Shown: one piece after another, positions 3,520 through 19,772 of the stretch
Layout: the number at the start of each line of letters is the position of its first letter
Position numbering within the stretch: the stretch's first letter is position 1
Virus record (IMG/VR): IMGVR_UViG_2609459820_000008
DNA length: 21,429 nucleotides
From: a virus
Taxonomy: Duplodnaviria; Heunggongvirae; Uroviricota; Caudoviricetes
Reading direction: 5' to 3' (one strand)
Notes under the pieces: model-generated
Databases searched by the model: none
What the model was told of the DNA's origin: nothing
What the model saw: only the letters and a program-made list of their open reading frames with translations
Made by a program: the position numbers and the translations under genes

Positions 3520-3708
3520 TCACGAGGACTGAAGTCTCTCGCAATTAAAATTTATCAGTTTTACTTTCTGCTCTCTGGAAACGGCTGCTTCTTTTTTACC
3601 TGAGAGCATTTTTTCGCATTCTGATTTCGTTAGTTTAGATTTTGAATATCTTGTCCAGTTAGTAGGAGTGCCACCTTCCTTTTCAATAGTGGCGGTAATT
3701 TTATACAT
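3520..3708 (-). CDS. ydaC: Small prophage protein, YdaC-like (DUF1187-type)
   Basis: ORF starting MYKITATIEKEGG... with a GGAGG Shine-Dalgarno 6 nt upstream; overlaps the ralR stop by 8 nt. Start choice within the 86-aa ORF is inferred from the RBS. Confidence 0.5.
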   Translation of the reverse strand: MYKITATIEKEGGTPTNWTRYSKSKLTKSECEKMLSGKKEAAVSREQKVKLINFNCERLQSS

Positions 3709-7857: not shown

Positions 7858-8037
7858 TAAAGTTCGTGTGCCATCTGGTCTTTTTCGGCACAACTTTCAC
7901 TACAATATTTTTTCATTTCCGTCGTTTGGATAACTCCACGCATGAAATGAAGTGGTCTTTTGATACTTTTGCTTTCTTCAATTTCTTTATTGCAAAGGTG
8001 GTAAGCACATTTTATTTTCTTAGTCATCACCATGACT
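7858..8037 (-). CDS. ydaE: Cys-rich zinc-binding small protein YdaE-like (56 aa)
   Basis: Hand-translated minus-strand ORF not in the 60-aa track: [63 protein letters not shown] upstream. The plus-strand ORF 7866-8126 is its shadow. Confidence 0.7.
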
Positions 8038-8248
8038 CCGCCTTTACAGGTAAACCATTACGACCGAGGAAGACTTTAATCATGCAGTCAGTAATGCATG
8101 TTTTTGTGGTCAGGTTACGAATATAAAGTTTTCGCTTTTTAATATTGTTTGCCGAGGCAATATATGTCCGGCCTTCATGAAGAACATAGTCACCAGGAGT
8201 CACACACTGACGTGGTATTTCATCAGTTCCGAAGTGATGTGCAATCAT
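8027..8248 (-). CDS. kilR: KilR-like cell-division inhibitor (killing function of Rac)
   Basis: 73 aa from [32 protein letters not shown]..., GGAG RBS before ATG at 8248. Position matches kilR of Rac. Confidence 0.75.
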
Positions 8249-8522
8249 AATTATCTCCATTTTTACAAATGAACTTTGTTGATGCGGTGCCTGGTGCCTC
8301 CAGGTGACTGCAACCAGTTAACAATTACAGTCGGCTTTCCCACCCAAACCAATAAGGACTAACATGACTTTTAACTGTGCCGCGTGCGCTTAGCCGCATT
8401 CACCGCATCACAAAATTCACTTTAAAAAGGGCGGGCATCAGTCGAACTTCAAGAAAAAACTGATGCCGCCAAGACTACACATAGCAGTGTTGTTATCCAC
8501 AACCGGAGGCGCACTCCCACCA

Positions 8523-9013
8523 TTTAAATTTAACAGACAAGACCGACTCTTTATGGATATCGGAAATGCGCCTTCGTGTTGTGCCCGGTTTTATTTCACC
8601 ACCTCCGGGCTTTGGTGGTTTCTGCTATACCCCTACAGCGAGAATATAAATTTAACAGACAAGACCGACTCTTTATGGATATCGGAAATGCGCCTTCGTG
8701 TTGTGCCCGGTTTTATTTCACCACCTCCGGGCTTTGGTGGTTTCTGCTATACCCCTACAGCGAGAATATAAATTTAACAGACAAGACCGACTCTTTATGG
8801 ATATCGGAAATGCGCCTTCGTGTTGTGCCCGGTTTTATTTCACCACCTCCGGGCTTTGGTGGTTTCTGCTATACCCCTACAGCGAGAATATAAATTTAAC
8901 AGACAAGACCGACTCTTTATGGATATCGGAAATGCGCCTTCGTGTTGTGCCCGGTTTTATTTCACCACCTCCGGGCTTTGGTGGTTTCTGCTATACCCCT
9001 ACAGCGAGAATAT
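8523..9013. repeat. Perfect tandem repeat, 4 copies of a 122-bp unit (unit starts about 8526, 8648, 8770, 8892)
   Basis: Seen directly: the unit AAATTTAACAGACAAGACCGACTCTTTATGGATATCGG...CTACAGCGAGAATAT recurs head-to-tail with 122-nt period and no visible mismatches. The four staggered plus-strand ORFs in the track are frame-rotated copies of the same sequence. Each unit has a stem ACCACC-N10-GGTGGT. Confidence 0.95.
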
Positions 9014-9034: not shown

Positions 9035-9187
9035 TTAGCAAGTATTTCTGGCAAGCCAGCGACGTGCGCCTGTTTCTGTTTTAAATGTTTTGCTTTTGGT
9101 ATACGTCATAGCAGTGAACGTTCCATCTTGGTTAGGGAACACGCCGCACACCATGGATTCGTTATTGCCGAGGTCGATTTTTTGCAT
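9035..9187 (-). CDS. ydaF: Small prophage protein, YdaF-like (50 aa)
   Basis: Hand-translated: MQKIDLGNNESMVCGVFPNQDGTFTAMTYTKSKTFKTETGARRWLARNTC. Lies downstream of the PL-like promoter and ydaG in the leftward operon. Below the ORF-track size cutoff. Confidence 0.5.
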   Translation of the reverse strand: MQKIDLGNNESMVCGVFPNQDGTFTAMTYTKSKTFKTETGARRWLARNTC

Positions 9188-10117: not shown

Positions 10118-10143
10118 TGCTTAATATTCTCCTATGCTCATTG

Positions 10144-10213
10144 CATTAGGCAATCCCTACTCTCATTGTATTAGGCATAGCCTATTGACATTTGTATTAG
10201 GCGTCGCCTAATA
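10144..10213 (+). promoter_or_regulatory. PR-like rightward promoter (-35 TTGACA 10185-10190, -10 TAATAT 10208-10213) plus three operator sites (ATTAGGC half-sites; perfect palindrome ATTAGGCGTCGCCTAAT 10195-10211)
   Basis: Operator motifs at 10144-10153, 10169-10184 and 10195-10211 in the 123-bp racR-ydaS divergent region. The palindrome overlaps the -10 element. Confidence 0.6.
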
Positions 10214-10240
10214 TCTCTGTGTGTTTTTGGAGTTCATTCG

Positions 10241-14029: not shown

Positions 14030-15184
14030 ATGGATTATTTATCAGAAGTGTTAAAAATCATTGAAGGTGCAACAAAGGCAAATGCTTCGATGGCTAGTAA
14101 TTATGCTGGGTTGCTGGCAGATAAGCTCGAACAAAAAGGGGAGGTCAAGCAAGCCAGAATGATAAGAGAAAGGTTGCTTAGAGCTCCCCAGGCGTTGGCA
14201 GGAGCTCAAAGGGCTGGAGGTGGGATATCTCTGGGCTCATTACCGGTAGATATTGATAGTCGACTCAACACTGTTGATGTCAGTTATCCTAAATTAGACA
14301 GTTCAGAGATTTTTCTGCCTGCAGCAATCAGTACCCGTGTTGAAGAGTTTATCACTAATGTTCAACGTTATGATGAGTTTGTTAAAGCTGATGCAGCATT
14401 GCCGAGTCGTATGCTCGTGTATGGAAAGCCAGGAACAGGTAAGACTATGTTATCTAAGTACATCGCTACCCGCTTAGATTTTCCACTTCTTACAGTGCGT
14501 TGCGATACTTTGATTAGTAGTTTATTGGGACAAACCAGCAAAAATCTTAGACAGGTTTTCGATTATGTAATGCAGAGGCCATCAGTGCTTTTTTTAGACG
14601 AATTTGATGCTTTAGCTGGAGCAAGAGGTAATGAGAGAGATATAGGTGAGCTTCAGCGAGTTGTCATTTCACTATTGCAGAATATGGATGCGGCATCAGA
14701 GGATACGGTAATTATTGCCTCAACTAACCATGAGCAACTTCTGGATCCTGCAATCTGGAGGCGATTTAGCTTCAGAATTCCAATGCCTCTGCCTGACATA
14801 CATCAGAGAGAGTTAATTTGGAAAAATCGTTTAAAGAATATGATATGTAGCGATCTAGATTTAAGTGATTTATCAAGAAAATCGGAAGGATTATCCGGAG
14901 CAATAATTGAACAGGTGAGCTTGGATGCACGTAGGGATGCAGTTATTGAAGGTGCAAGTGTGATAAATCACCATAAATTGTATAGGCGTTTGTATCTTGC
15001 TCAATCGCTTATGGAAGGTGTAAATTTAAGCACTTACGAAGATGAAATTCGTTGGTTACGTTCTAAAGATAAAAAATTATTTTCTATCAGAGTTCTTGCT
15101 AATTTGTACAAACTTACATCAAGAGTAATTTCAAACATTCTGAAGGAGTCAGGAGCATATGAGCAGAAGGGGTACACAGTTTAG
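14030..15184 (+). CDS. AAA+ ATPase (classic AAA domain) - first gene of a two-gene low-GC cargo; IetA-like candidate defence ATPase
   Basis: 384 aa. Walker A GKPGTGKT (aa 132-139), Walker B VLFLDEFDAL (aa 186-195), sensor-1 IIASTNH, arginine RRF. GGGAG RBS. Sampled stretches of the cargo are about 27-32% GC versus roughly 50% flanking. Confidence 0.9.
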   Translation: MDYLSEVLKIIEGATKANASMASNYAGLLADKLEQKGEVKQARMIRERLLRAPQALAGAQRAGGGISLGSLPVDIDSRLNTVDVSYPKLDSSEIFLPAAISTRVEEFITNVQRYDEFVKADAALPSRMLVYGKPGTGKTMLSKYIATRLDFPLLTVRCDTLISSLLGQTSKNLRQVFDYVMQRPSVLFLDEFDALAGARGNERDIGELQRVVISLLQNMDAASEDTVIIASTNHEQLLDPAIWRRFSFRIPMPLPDIHQRELIWKNRLKNMICSDLDLSDLSRKSEGLSGAIIEQVSLDARRDAVIEGASVINHHKLYRRLYLAQSLMEGVNLSTYEDEIRWLRSKDKKLFSIRVLANLYKLTSRVISNILKESGAYEQKGYTV

Positions 15185-17423
15185 TAACGCAAAAGTTACA
15201 AACCCAATGTTAAGAATCCCTTTTTCCAGTAGTGACTTGGGTGCAATAGTAAACGCTGGCGGTGGGGCAAAGGTATTGGTTGATGTAACAGCCGAATATA
15301 GACAAGGGCTAGTAAGAAATTTAACAACCAGTAAACATTATTTAGAATCCAAACTTTCAGAGTACCCTGGAAGCTTGGGTACTTTGGTTTTCAAATTAAG
15401 AGACCAGGGAATAGCCAAAACGCATAGGCCGAACAAAATTGCTCAAGAGGCTGGATTGCAAAATGCCGGTCATGCCAAAATAGATGAAATGTTGGTTGCT
15501 GCTCATGCCGGCTGTTTTGACGTATTAGAGTCAGTCATTTTACATCGGAATATTAAAGCGATTTTGGCTAATCTAAGCGCGATTGAGCGCATTGAACCTT
15601 GGGATGAGAATAGGAAGGTTCCAGGAGGCACTGATGGTTTGTTTGAATCATCAAACATCCTTGTACGACTATTTGAGTACACAGGTGAAGATGCAACTTA
15701 CAACAACTATGAAAACGTTATTTCTATATTAGAACAACACGGAGTTAAATATGATGAGATTAGACAAAAATGTGGTCTTCCCTTATTAAGGATAATGGAT
15801 TTATCCCCAAATGATAGATATATATTAGACATTCTCATTGATTACCCGGGTATAAGAACGTTAATTCCTGAACCAAAATATTCAGCATTCCCGGTTAGTG
15901 TAAGTGATTCTGTTGGCATTGAAACAAATAGCTTTCCCGTACCATCAGAAGAATTACCCATTGTTGCTGTATTTGACACTGGGGTAAGCCCCATCGCGGC
16001 AACAATTACTCCTTGGGTAGTGAGTAGGGAAACATACGTAATTCCTCCTGATACGAGTTATGAACATGGGACTATGGTGTCTTCATTGATATCAGGCGCT
16101 CATTTTTTAAATGACAATCATCCATGGATTCCTGATACAAAATCTAAAATCCATGATGTTTGTGCCTTAGATGAAAATGGATCTTATATATCAGATTTAA
16201 TTCTGAGGCTAGCAGATGCTGTAAATAAAAGACCAGATATAAAAGTCTGGAATTTGTCTTTGGGAGGCGGACCATGTAATGAGCAGACGTTTAGTGATTT
16301 TGCGATGGAGTTAGATCGGCTCAGCGATAAATTTGGTATTTTGTTTGTAGTTGCTGCAGGTAATTATGTAGATGAACCTATACGTACATGGCCAAATCCT
16401 GATCCGCTTGGAGGTGCTGATTTAATTTCCTCTCCTGGAGAGTCAGTCCGAGCACTAACAGTTGGTTCAGTTTCTCATATGGAAGCTAATGATGCTTTAA
16501 GTGAAATTGGAACACCGACACCATATACTCGTCGTGGCCCTGGGCCTGTATTTACTCCAAAGCCAGATATAATCCATGCTGGCGGTGGGGTTCATAGACC
16601 TTGGAATGTAGGAGCAAGCAGTTTAAAGGTCGTAGGGCCAGATAATAGGCTTTGCTCTAATTTTGGTACTAGTTTTGCTGCTCCAATTGTGGCAAGTTTA
16701 GCTGCGCATACATGGCAGAGAATAGCCACTAATACAGACTTTAATGTTTCACCATCATTGATTAAAGCATTATTAATTCATTCCGCTCAATTATCTTCTC
16801 CTGATTACTCGCCAAGTGAAAGACGCTATTTGGGAGCGGGAATTCCTAATGAAGTTATTGAGACCTTATATGATAGTGATGATAGGTTTACTCTGATTTT
16901 CCAAACATTCTTGGTTCCTGGGGTGAGGTGGAGAAAGGATAACTATCCCATACCATCGGCACTTATTCAAAATGGAAAATTTAAAGGTGAGATTGTAATT
17001 ACTGCTGCATATGCACCACCACTGAACCCTAATGCCGGCAGTGAATATGTTCGCGCGAACGTAGAGCTAAGTTTTGGCTTAATTGAGAATAATACTATAA
17101 AAGGAAAAGTGCCTATGGAAGGAGAAAACGGTCAATCTGGATATGAGAGAGCTCAAATTGAGCATGGTGGAAAGTGGTCACCAGTAAAAATTCATCGCAA
17201 GGCATTTAATAAAGGAATTACTTCGGGTAACTGGGCTCTTCAGGCTAAAACAACGTTGAGAGCGAATGAACCGGCCTTAATGGAGCCTTTACCTGTAACT
17301 ATTGTAGTAACTTTAAAATCATTAGATGGAAACACACAAGTTTATGCTGATGGCGTAAGAGCTTTAAATGCTAATAACTGGGCTCACTATCCATTGCCTG
17401 CTCGTGTGCCAGTTTCCGTATAA
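15159..17423 (+). CDS. Subtilisin-like serine peptidase (S8 family) with extra N- and C-terminal domains; IetS-like candidate defence protease
   Basis: 754 aa. Catalytic motifs in S8 order: Asp in VAVFDTGVS (about aa 273), His in YEHGTMVSS (about aa 303), oxyanion Asn in VVAAGNY (about aa 402), Ser in GTSFAAPIVA (about aa 505). Start overlaps the ATPase 3' end by 26 nt with AGGAG RBS (translational coupling). Low GC. Confidence 0.9.
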   Translation: MSRRGTQFSNAKVTNPMLRIPFSSSDLGAIVNAGGGAKVLVDVTAEYRQGLVRNLTTSKHYLESKLSEYPGSLGTLVFKLRDQGIAKTHRPNKIAQEAGLQNAGHAKIDEMLVAAHAGCFDVLESVILHRNIKAILANLSAIERIEPWDENRKVPGGTDGLFESSNILVRLFEYTGEDATYNNYENVISILEQHGVKYDEIRQKCGLPLLRIMDLSPNDRYILDILIDYPGIRTLIPEPKYSAFPVSVSDSVGIETNSFPVPSEELPIVAVFDTGVSPIAATITPWVVSRETYVIPPDTSYEHGTMVSSLISGAHFLNDNHPWIPDTKSKIHDVCALDENGSYISDLILRLADAVNKRPDIKVWNLSLGGGPCNEQTFSDFAMELDRLSDKFGILFVVAAGNYVDEPIRTWPNPDPLGGADLISSPGESVRALTVGSVSHMEANDALSEIGTPTPYTRRGPGPVFTPKPDIIHAGGGVHRPWNVGASSLKVVGPDNRLCSNFGTSFAAPIVASLAAHTWQRIATNTDFNVSPSLIKALLIHSAQLSSPDYSPSERRYLGAGIPNEVIETLYDSDDRFTLIFQTFLVPGVRWRKDNYPIPSALIQNGKFKGEIVITAAYAPPLNPNAGSEYVRANVELSFGLIENNTIKGKVPMEGENGQSGYERAQIEHGGKWSPVKIHRKAFNKGITSGNWALQAKTTLRANEPALMEPLPVTIVVTLKSLDGNTQVYADGVRALNANNWAHYPLPARVPVSV

Positions 17424-19618: not shown

Positions 19619-19694
<76 letters not shown>

Positions 19695-19697
19695 TAT

Positions 19698-19772
<75 letters not shown>

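Follow-up and report, generated by a model that had tools for sequence, protein, structure and literature searches.

We analyzed a 21,429-nt stretch of viral DNA (hereafter, the window) that carries, in its leftward early region, a perfect tandem array of four 122-bp units. Our analysis indicates, with a probability of about 0.65, that this array is a recent tandem amplification of the 122 bp upstream of kilS in a Rac-like phage that lacks sieB, with the origin and the consequence proposed below. The first-pass annotation had treated the unit as an anonymous repeated RNA module; because the unit aligns as the promoter and upstream region (−5 to −126) of the known sRNA gene kilS, we interpret the array instead as an amplified promoter. 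The kilS gene has already been described, and the array is a copy-number variant of this known locus, not a new class of element.

TRF placed the repeat at 8525–9013 of the window, with a period of 122, 4.0 copies, 100% matches, no indels, and a score of 978, and a direct string comparison found the four units to be identical strings, with a total length of 488 bp. Base 8524 is a mismatch to the unit, and base 9013 is one extra base that matches it. The perfect 4 × 122-bp tandem structure reported earlier was thus reproduced by both methods, while the coordinates proposed at that time (8523–9013) began 2 nt too early and took in the extra matching base at the other end. The flanks of the array are clean, and its copy number is an exact integer; 488 bp of perfect tandem repetition is far more than chance would give. 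The features of the region, in which kilR and ydaF flank the array, are as follows:

8525–9012, no strand assigned: tandem array of four identical 122-bp units (TRF, string identity, and mapping to K-12 kilS)
8525–8646, 8647–8768, 8769–8890, and 8891–9012: the array units (string comparison)
8027–8248, minus strand: kilR, FtsZ/cell-division inhibitor, downstream of kilS (RefSeq annotation of identical DNA and ORF list)
8241–8427, minus strand: leader between the KilS terminator and kilR, matching the full Rfam STnc100 model at 37.4 bits, which is under the gathering score of 47
9035–9187, minus strand: ydaF (DUF1391), upstream of the array in the leftward operon (annotation of identical DNA)
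9530→9502, minus strand: predicted PL-like promoter, TTGACA-17-TATAGT, 11/12 consensus (consensus scan, sequence match only)

The window is a Rac-like phage without sieB, with the gene order intR-xisR-ralR/RalA-recT-recE-racC-ydaE-kilR, array, ydaF-ydaG-racR / ydaS-ydaT. K-12 Rac has sieB between kilR and ydaF, in agreement with the earlier placement of the array at the sieB slot of the leftward early region. The ydaF stop codon is 22 bp from the array. The array had also been placed downstream of a PL-like promoter, and the consensus scan recovered such a promoter, which would, as predicted, transcribe ydaG-ydaF, the array, and then kilS. Further, the window contains a perfect attP (core, 1867–1892), with its left arm being the attR side beside sitA and its right arm being the attL side beside intR; this attP form means that the source of the window was an excised circle, a permuted phage contig, or a tandem prophage. 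The kilR gene encodes an inhibitor of cell division; Rho/NusG normally keeps it silent, and oxidative stress relieves the silencing via OxyS (PMC5793797, PMC12482147). Our literature search for a kilR promoter, or for YdaT or RacR binding at the array region, returned nothing relevant.

The identity of the unit was established by comparison with K-12, where the sRNA gene kilS (b4833) is annotated at 1418405–1418502 on the minus strand, between sieB and kilR. The corresponding features of the window are as follows:

8424–8520, minus strand: kilS homologue (KilS sRNA, 97 nt), +1 at 8520, single copy just outside the array
8434–8467, minus strand: KilS intrinsic terminator hairpin, with arms at 8434–8442 and 8459–8467 and a T-run at 8424–8428 (inverted repeat and fold)

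The window and K-12 kilS sequences are identical at 89/98 positions, and the 126 bp upstream of kilS are identical at 120/126, including every position from −1 to −61. KilS +1 (the K-12 transcription start site [TSS] at 1418502) aligns to window position 8520, which puts it 5 bp outside the left end of the array, and by this alignment each 122-bp unit comprises kilS positions −5 to −126. The predicted terminator consists of a 9-bp perfect inverted repeat followed by a T-run, and the KilS fold has a z score of −2.58 against shuffles. Moreover, the 3′ half of KilS aligns to the whole Rfam DicF model (RF00039, 1–52; 34.4 bits, E about 5e-6), at a score below the DicF gathering score of 48, so that KilS is best described as DicF-like and not as a family member. 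The window therefore presents (i) kilS homology upstream of kilR, (ii) an aligned TSS with a conserved promoter, at the level of sequence, and (iii) an intrinsic terminator. In K-12, KilS was predicted from RIL-seq and verified by northern blotting as an Hfq-dependent RNA of ∼98 nt; the wild type has it, a strain deleted for hfq does not, and it builds up in stationary-phase cells (Bar et al. 2021, PMC8175672). From global TSS data these authors concluded that KilS can be made from a promoter of its own, and their Supplementary Table 6 gives 1418502 as a TSS and 1418471, inside KilS, as an RNase E site (PMC8175672).

The unit carries the kilS extended −10 element, TGTTAAATT, at −15 to −7, with the TAAATT hexamer at −12 to −7 and the TG at −15/−14. 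Its four copies are as follows:

8527–8535, minus strand: native kilS extended −10, TGTTAAATT (position relative to the mapped TSS)
8649–8657, minus strand: second extended −10 copy (repeat of TGTTAAATT)
8771–8779, minus strand: third extended −10 copy (repeat of TGTTAAATT)
8893–8901, minus strand: fourth extended −10 copy (repeat of TGTTAAATT)

Four same-orientation copies of −126 to −5 are therefore present upstream of kilS, and at the sequence level they amount to four putative kilS-directed promoters in tandem, 122 bp apart and identical from −5 upward. Downstream of the −10, the native copy reads TAAATGGTGGGAGT and the three distal copies read TATATTCTCGCTGT, so that −4 to +1 and the initial transcribed region are changed in the distal copies (TATATTC versus the native TAAATGG). 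The motif GTTAAATTT and the whole −61 to +22 block are nearly invariant among 62 distinct variants and in a second locus family, where −5 to −39 were fixed by the search pattern in the 62-variant set and the remaining positions were free. The −35 of the kilS promoter is poor and its consensus score is weak, and because of this poor −35 it is absent from our consensus-scan list; the scans found no consensus promoter in the array and, on either strand of 8525–9012, no terminator-like site (a G+C-rich stem followed by a T-run). Candidates for a plus-strand (sieB-side) promoter in the unit are weak. From the duplicated promoter elements, it may be supposed that the distal copies fire as well.

To place the array among its relatives, we compared a 1201-bp query with 5426 complete Escherichia coli genomes. 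Nearly all of the close relatives match over 835 bp (1201 − 3 × 122), which corresponds to one copy, and a few genomes match over 957 bp, which corresponds to two. Strain 144 (NZ_CP023364) is a one-copy relative. A search for the perfect unit found it in 59 complete E. coli genomes, with one copy in 56/59, two copies in 3/59, and more in 0/59. An 80-nt junction probe, which is unable to match single-copy loci, matched 3/5426 complete genomes, once each. The two-copy state is thus represented by three independently assembled genomes (USA, Germany, and UK), all of which have the prophage at ttcA. The sieB-less allele is present in 167 genomes, and a looser census (unit at ≥90% identity) found the unit at up to three places per genome. 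Outside these genomes, a 35-nt promoter motif located 65 metagenome, 6 species-representative, and 120 viral loci (191 in total), all of which are single-copy, and the junction 40-mer and 80-mer were both absent from GTDB representatives, JGI metagenomes, IMG/VR, INPHARED phages, and PLSDB plasmids. No other array of at least three copies occurs in the searched collections, and the four copies are so far unique.

Plus-strand ORF products that are specific to the copy number provided a further probe for arrays. An exact look-up of the products that require at least two copies found none, and among 5.8 billion protein clusters there was one partial protein, WP_257256584.1, with the junction signature ...YSENINLTDK.... 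This protein is encoded on a 221-bp contig (122 + 99) with the same junction in a draft E. coli assembly, and 221 bp is the output expected of a k = 99 de Bruijn assembler for a loop with a period of 122. At least one further isolate therefore has the array left as a loop in its assembly. The duplication is real and has been sampled repeatedly.

These counts bear on several earlier suggestions. A recent expansion had been proposed, and it is most likely recent, as the units are 100% identical and the relatives nearly always carry one copy. A second proposal, of a variable-number locus affecting kil expression, holds in part: head-to-tail copies of one unit differ in number among related genomes (1, 2, and 4), while one copy is near-universal, which makes the multiplicity a rare variant, and an effect on kil is plausible by inference. 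The reservation that the array might be a well-characterized typing repeat found no evidence in its favor, given one copy in 56/59 of the perfect-unit genomes; the locus is nearly monomorphic among the 5426 genomes, and the literature searched, which covered multilocus VNTR typing (MLVA) schemes in part, yielded no use of it as a typing locus. The multiplicity is a rare strain-level variant and not a designed feature.

The unit–unit junction (...GAGAATA/TAAATTT...) has 1 nt of microhomology, and because of this minimal microhomology the founding event was illegitimate and probably single. The distal breakpoint lies 3–4 nt from the boundary of the sieB indel. The backbone SNPs are star-like, with four sites private to the window, and the window is not linked to the two-copy genomes. 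We propose that one illegitimate duplication would have created the junction, and that homology-driven unequal exchange or replication slippage between the 122-bp units may then have led to a stepwise rise to four. The proximal copy keeps the native promoter-to-kilS context, and the extra promoters, which lie upstream of it at distances of 122, 244, and 366 bp, would fire toward kilS and kilR.

What such transcripts would become depends on a helix that encloses the kilS promoter:

8562–8582, minus strand: helix 5′ arm (kilS −62 to −42), repeated at 8684–8704, 8806–8826, and 8928–8948
8499–8518, minus strand: helix 3′ arm (KilS +3 to +22), single copy, outside the array

The folding of the unit alone is ordinary (z = −0.68 and −0.33 for the two orientations against shuffles). 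The unit together with KilS folds much better (z = −3.44, with 0/200 shuffles as good), because −62 to −42 pairs with KilS +3 to +22; the kilS −10 element lies in the loop of this helix. RNAalifold with 19 representatives gave 17 pairs, among which three are changed on both sides, all of these two-sided changes stemming from one deep split between two locus families, and the one-sided changes are all G·U on the minus strand. In a formal count, 99.1% of the cells are paired, versus 30–43% when the arms are slid, and 0/500 shuffles reach the observed value. The second family of lambdoid loci, which is large and widespread, keeps the helix with a different inner stem. The primary KilS transcript is without the 5′ arm, whereas read-through RNA from the PL-like promoter or from the distal promoters would contain it. 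We infer that the helix marks a KilS precursor route and that the extra-promoter transcripts would be of the precursor type.

By this mechanism, the extra-promoter transcripts would carry a full unit before KilS, much like the precursor that read-through from the PL-like promoter naturally gives. The 5′ arm would pair with the KilS 5′ end, forming a likely RNase III/RNase E substrate as in dicF, whereas primary KilS would have its 5′ end free; on our model, the conserved helix of ∼20 bp would suit RNase III. The net outcome may be more, or differently processed, KilS together with somewhat more kilR read-through, or it may be no measurable effect. Among functional consequences, altered dosage or processing of KilS, with changed read-through into kilR, is the most likely and is plausible; against active extra copies, upstream transcription could occlude the native promoter instead of adding to it. 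The covarying helix around the kilS promoter provides a testable model in which DicF-like sRNAs arise via both primary transcripts and processing. A bolder extension is that the kilS region is an undescribed dual-biogenesis switch, in which primary KilS has a free 5′ end and the read-through precursor is sequestered and processed, that the unit (promoter, helix 5′ arm, and upstream hairpins) is a self-contained module, and that its copy number acts as a heritable, reversible, contingency-like dial for a DicF-like sRNA and the FtsZ inhibitor KilR, with expansion perhaps favored in the excised, RecET-expressing phage; we regard this extension as a long shot.

The other half of the unit contains three dyads, namely P0, S1, and S2:

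8583–8646, minus strand: distal half of the unit (−63 to −126), present in each unit, with three dyads that are kept with changed sequence in a diverged allele
8620–8644: P0 dyad, within the distal half of the first unit

S1 is the ACCACC-N10-GGTGGT stem noted earlier, and it was indeed found in every unit; S2 (GCCCGG/CCGGGC) is interleaved with it. The spacings are N10 and N16, and the stems, at 6 bp, are below the limit of the repeat finder. As an RNA structure, the 6-bp stem receives mixed support, with the unit having no unusual fold energy (the z scores above) and the stem being kept in the diverged allele. In this allele (type C), which is ∼65% identical over −63 to −126, P0, S1, and S2 are all kept with changed sequence, as assessed by a custom search, the diverged allele not being in structural register on the MAFFT alignment; one homologous dyad pair is changed from G:C to T:A. 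The interleaved stems recur in 0/3000 and 1/3000 shuffles. One-sided dyad changes favor the minus strand by only about 4:1. In the second family, the S2 equivalent is a simple hairpin, CCCTGA-AAAG-TCAGGG, with compensatory variants. A structural or binding role for S1 and the interleaved dyad is possible. Neither the 64-nt element nor its diverged form recurs elsewhere in the window, and no Rfam family falls inside the unit, either at the gathering score or at E ≤ 1.

The distal half also borders the position that sieB occupies elsewhere. Alignment with a sieB-bearing Rac-like phage and with K-12 places the unit in front of sieB, and in the window about 42 bp stand where the sieB body would be. 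The unit aligns to −165 to −46 upstream of the K-12-type SieB start (MLDVF..., 162 aa), which lies 45 bp beyond the unit; the long sieB ORF of the sieB-bearing phage record begins inside the unit. We considered a sieB pseudogene or remnant and rejected it, as all of the unit precedes the real SieB start and none of it is sieB coding sequence. The −63 to −126 element is common to sieB alleles and to several sieB-less alleles, and in three sieB-less allele types a different plus-strand gene, with its own Shine-Dalgarno sequence, begins at P0. Because sieB or other plus-strand genes occupy the P0-side site, this position is a cargo slot.

Could the array itself encode a protein, either through plus-strand ORFs of 102–107 aa or through a 27-codon MRLRVV... 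ORF in each unit? The plus-strand frames are open, and the phage record annotates a long sieB ORF starting here, but the ORFs of 102–107 aa arise by frame-walking, the period not being divisible by 3 (122 = 3 × 40 + 2), and have no Pfam match, no CDS is annotated at this position in RefSeq in one- or two-copy genomes, and the real SieB start is beyond the unit. Moreover, products that require at least two copies are absent from 15 billion proteins, except for the one partial call on the loop contig, and on the minus strand no ORF of >38 codons is open in the array. The noncoding nature claimed for the array is thus upheld, and the chance of a protein product is negligible. The array could also be a functional series of RNA modules (P0/S1/S2 and the helix 5′ arm), acting in antitermination, in processing, or by offering competitor arms that would release the KilS 5′ end. 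Consistent with this, the three dyads are kept with changed sequence, the interleaved stems recur in ≤1/3000 shuffles, the one-sided dyad changes are mostly G·U on the minus strand, there are four helix 5′ arms for one 3′ arm, and the array, in which no terminator is predicted, would be transcribed through. We nevertheless consider this reading very unlikely: one copy is the norm everywhere, so the multiplicity is not part of the design; the folding energy of the unit is ordinary and Rfam has no match inside it; and the dyads could equally be protein-binding palindromes or a leader of the plus-strand cargo gene. Antitermination, which had been suggested earlier, is further disfavored by the lack of a twin element elsewhere in the window, unlike put/nut systems, which have a rightward-arm twin. 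The same dyads raise the question of a protein-binding decoy or operator array, with TTAAATTTAA at the −10 and the S1/S2 dyads as palindromic sites for titrating a regulator. Dyad symmetry is present, and symmetric half-site changes in the diverged allele are also the pattern of co-evolving operators; on the other hand, the analysis turned up neither a known regulator nor a known motif, only the native copy (8524–8533) has the full palindrome TTAAATTTAA, two interleaved dyads with different spacings (N10 and N16) are unusual for dimer sites, and the strand bias of the one-sided changes favors RNA. A decoy array, likewise among the earlier candidate roles, therefore found no evidence and appears highly improbable.

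Two further alternatives accept the duplication and concern its count or its effect. By the first of these, the tandem duplication is true, but the assembler looped it arbitrarily, so that the true number of units is not four. No other searched sequence has four copies, the 122-bp period is shorter than common short reads, which consequently cannot count the copies, in a draft E. coli assembly this repeat ended up as a 221-bp loop contig, and the circular, permuted, or tandem attP form of the window is typical of phage or virome assemblies. Against this stand the genuine unit–unit junction in three complete genomes from different laboratories, the exact integer of perfect copies with clean flanks, and the tendency of assemblers to collapse such tandem repeats more often than they expand them. 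We judge an artefactual count to be unlikely; given the attP-type origin and a period below common read lengths, four is to be read as the assembled count, and the exact number may differ. A more serious contender, though still doubtful, is that the extra copies are a neutral variant, being silent or without measurable contribution (with inactive distal promoters or degraded transcripts), and a transient by-product of recombination. This would fit the extreme rarity of the multicopy alleles (three with two copies and none with at least three among the 59 perfect-unit genomes), the single copy at 191/191 further loci, the lack of divergence between copies, which gives no sign of long retention, and the weak promoter consensus score. 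However, the duplication took in, unbroken, every recognized promoter element from −5 upward, E. coli test systems show additive output from tandem promoters, and the two-copy allele has persisted long enough to be sampled in the USA, Germany, and the UK. We therefore favor a recent amplification of the kilS upstream region with a plausible influence on kilS and kilR.

If the extra copies are active, the array would be a natural tandem amplification, inside a prophage, of the promoter of an sRNA and a toxin gene, and baseline amounts of KilR, the cell-division inhibitor, and of a DicF-like regulator could change; otherwise, it is an ordinary, rare structural polymorphism. The one-, two-, and four-copy alleles are ready-made for probing how the output of kilS and kilR is set.

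Among known systems, the lambda nut and HK022 put sites resemble the array in being hairpin-bearing RNA elements of early leftward transcripts, and the second-family hairpin homologous to S2 begins with CCCUGAAAA, as in lambda boxB. We rejected membership in this group, as no paired site was found within the window: there is no rightward-arm copy, the position is not just downstream of PL, the stem/loop geometry differs from that of boxB, and Rfam gave no match. A close counterpart is the kilS locus of K-12 Rac (PMC8175672), which shares the homologous sRNA, the aligned start, the terminator, and the position before kilR; K-12 differs in having one copy of the upstream segment, against four here, and in having sieB, which is absent here. 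The dicF locus is similarly arranged, with an sRNA and its intrinsic terminator followed by a leader and then by a division-inhibitor gene. Further, the KilS 3′ half covers the whole DicF model, both RNAs accumulate in stationary phase, an RNase E site is recorded inside KilS, and the conserved helix described here would suit RNase III. Unlike dicF, KilS scores 34.4 against the Rfam gathering score of 48, its start is mapped as primary, whereas an internal dicF promoter was not found, and tandem amplification is not known for dicF.

With respect to copy number, the array is comparable to bacterial minisatellite/VNTR loci and to spontaneous promoter duplications, in that the copies are perfect and head-to-tail, isolates differ (1, 2, and 4), and the unit-length homology permits expansion and contraction. 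In contrast to VNTR loci, the kilS array locus is almost monomorphic (one copy in 56/59) and is probably not a useful typing locus, nor one known from the literature searched; all of its arrays have one common junction, which suggests a single founding event. With respect to the proposed output, the array may be compared with the engineered MCPtac promoters, which combine strong synthetic tac cores at short spacing, whereas the kilS array would combine natural weak-consensus extended −10 elements of presumed activity at a 122-bp spacing, with a structured leader. Both have identical promoters placed head-to-tail in one orientation upstream of one gene, and in E. coli the tandem tac core promoters raised transcription stepwise with up to five copies (Li et al. 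2012, PMC3293061).

A perfect attP-type junction lies within positions 1781-1990 of the window, with its core (1867-1892) reading TTGTTCAGGTTGTATTGTTCTTTCTT; the left arm is identical to the attR side, namely the sitA upstream region, and the right arm to the attL side, which carries intR. Such a junction rules out a simple ttcA-integrated prophage as the form of this DNA, and points instead to (i) an excised circle, (ii) a permuted phage contig, or (iii) a tandem prophage. The features outside the kilS region (kilS being the sRNA gene next to the 122-bp unit) are as follows.

1-1866: sitB'/sitA, iron/manganese transporter, at the right end of the Rac-like phage
3524-3702, + strand: RalA antitoxin sRNA (Rfam RF02694, 220 bits)
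10137-10210: imperfect tandem repeat (25 bp x 2.9, 79% matches), intergenic between racR and ydaS
14030-17423: homologues of iteA (ATPase) and iteS (S8 peptidase), two anti-phage genes, from the RefSeq annotation of near-identical DNA
19619-19769, + strand: two phage-borne tRNA genes, annotated as Thr and Gly in related genomes

In related genomes, sitABCD resides within the prophage, flanked by the tail-fibre genes on one side and attR on the other, a placement that makes it phage cargo. RalA sits opposite ralR, and this type I toxin-antitoxin pair of Rac is intact. The 25-bp repeats adjoin a promoter-like site (10185-10214) and are probably repressor operators. The iteA/iteS homologues occupy the rightward region of the prophage, and the two tRNA genes precede the lysis genes, on their upstream side.

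The window differs from all relatives compared, with one or two copies of the unit, at four sites (3930, 5778, 20242, and 20270), so that its source lineage lies outside the complete genomes examined. At a looser threshold, the E. coli genome census placed the unit at 1819 positions in 1732 genomes, with up to three places per genome; the extra places could be either additional Rac-like prophages or other duplications.

On the minus strand, a conserved RNA helix of ∼20 bp, formed by 8499-8518 pairing with 8562-8582, encloses the kilS -10 and pairs with the 5' end of the sRNA. Another large family of loci in lambdoid prophages (L206-L325) has this helix too, with covarying stems. The interleaved dyads, which recur in every unit (8583-8646) with a pseudoknot-like topology, are retained in diverged alleles; the loci behind this observation and the next are of type C (L057, L115, L118, and L191), type B (L074 and L179), and type D (L172 and L174). 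Distal to the dyads, some alleles contain sieB and others unrelated + strand genes, a variability in content that marks this position as a cargo slot.

The 3' half of KilS (8429-8483, minus strand) scored 34.4 bits against the full Rfam DicF model, under the gathering score of 48, and the leader ahead of the cell-division inhibitor gene kilR (8241-8427, minus strand) scored 37.4 bits against Rfam STnc100, under 47. The order of kilS, leader, and kilR mirrors the dicF, dicB layout.
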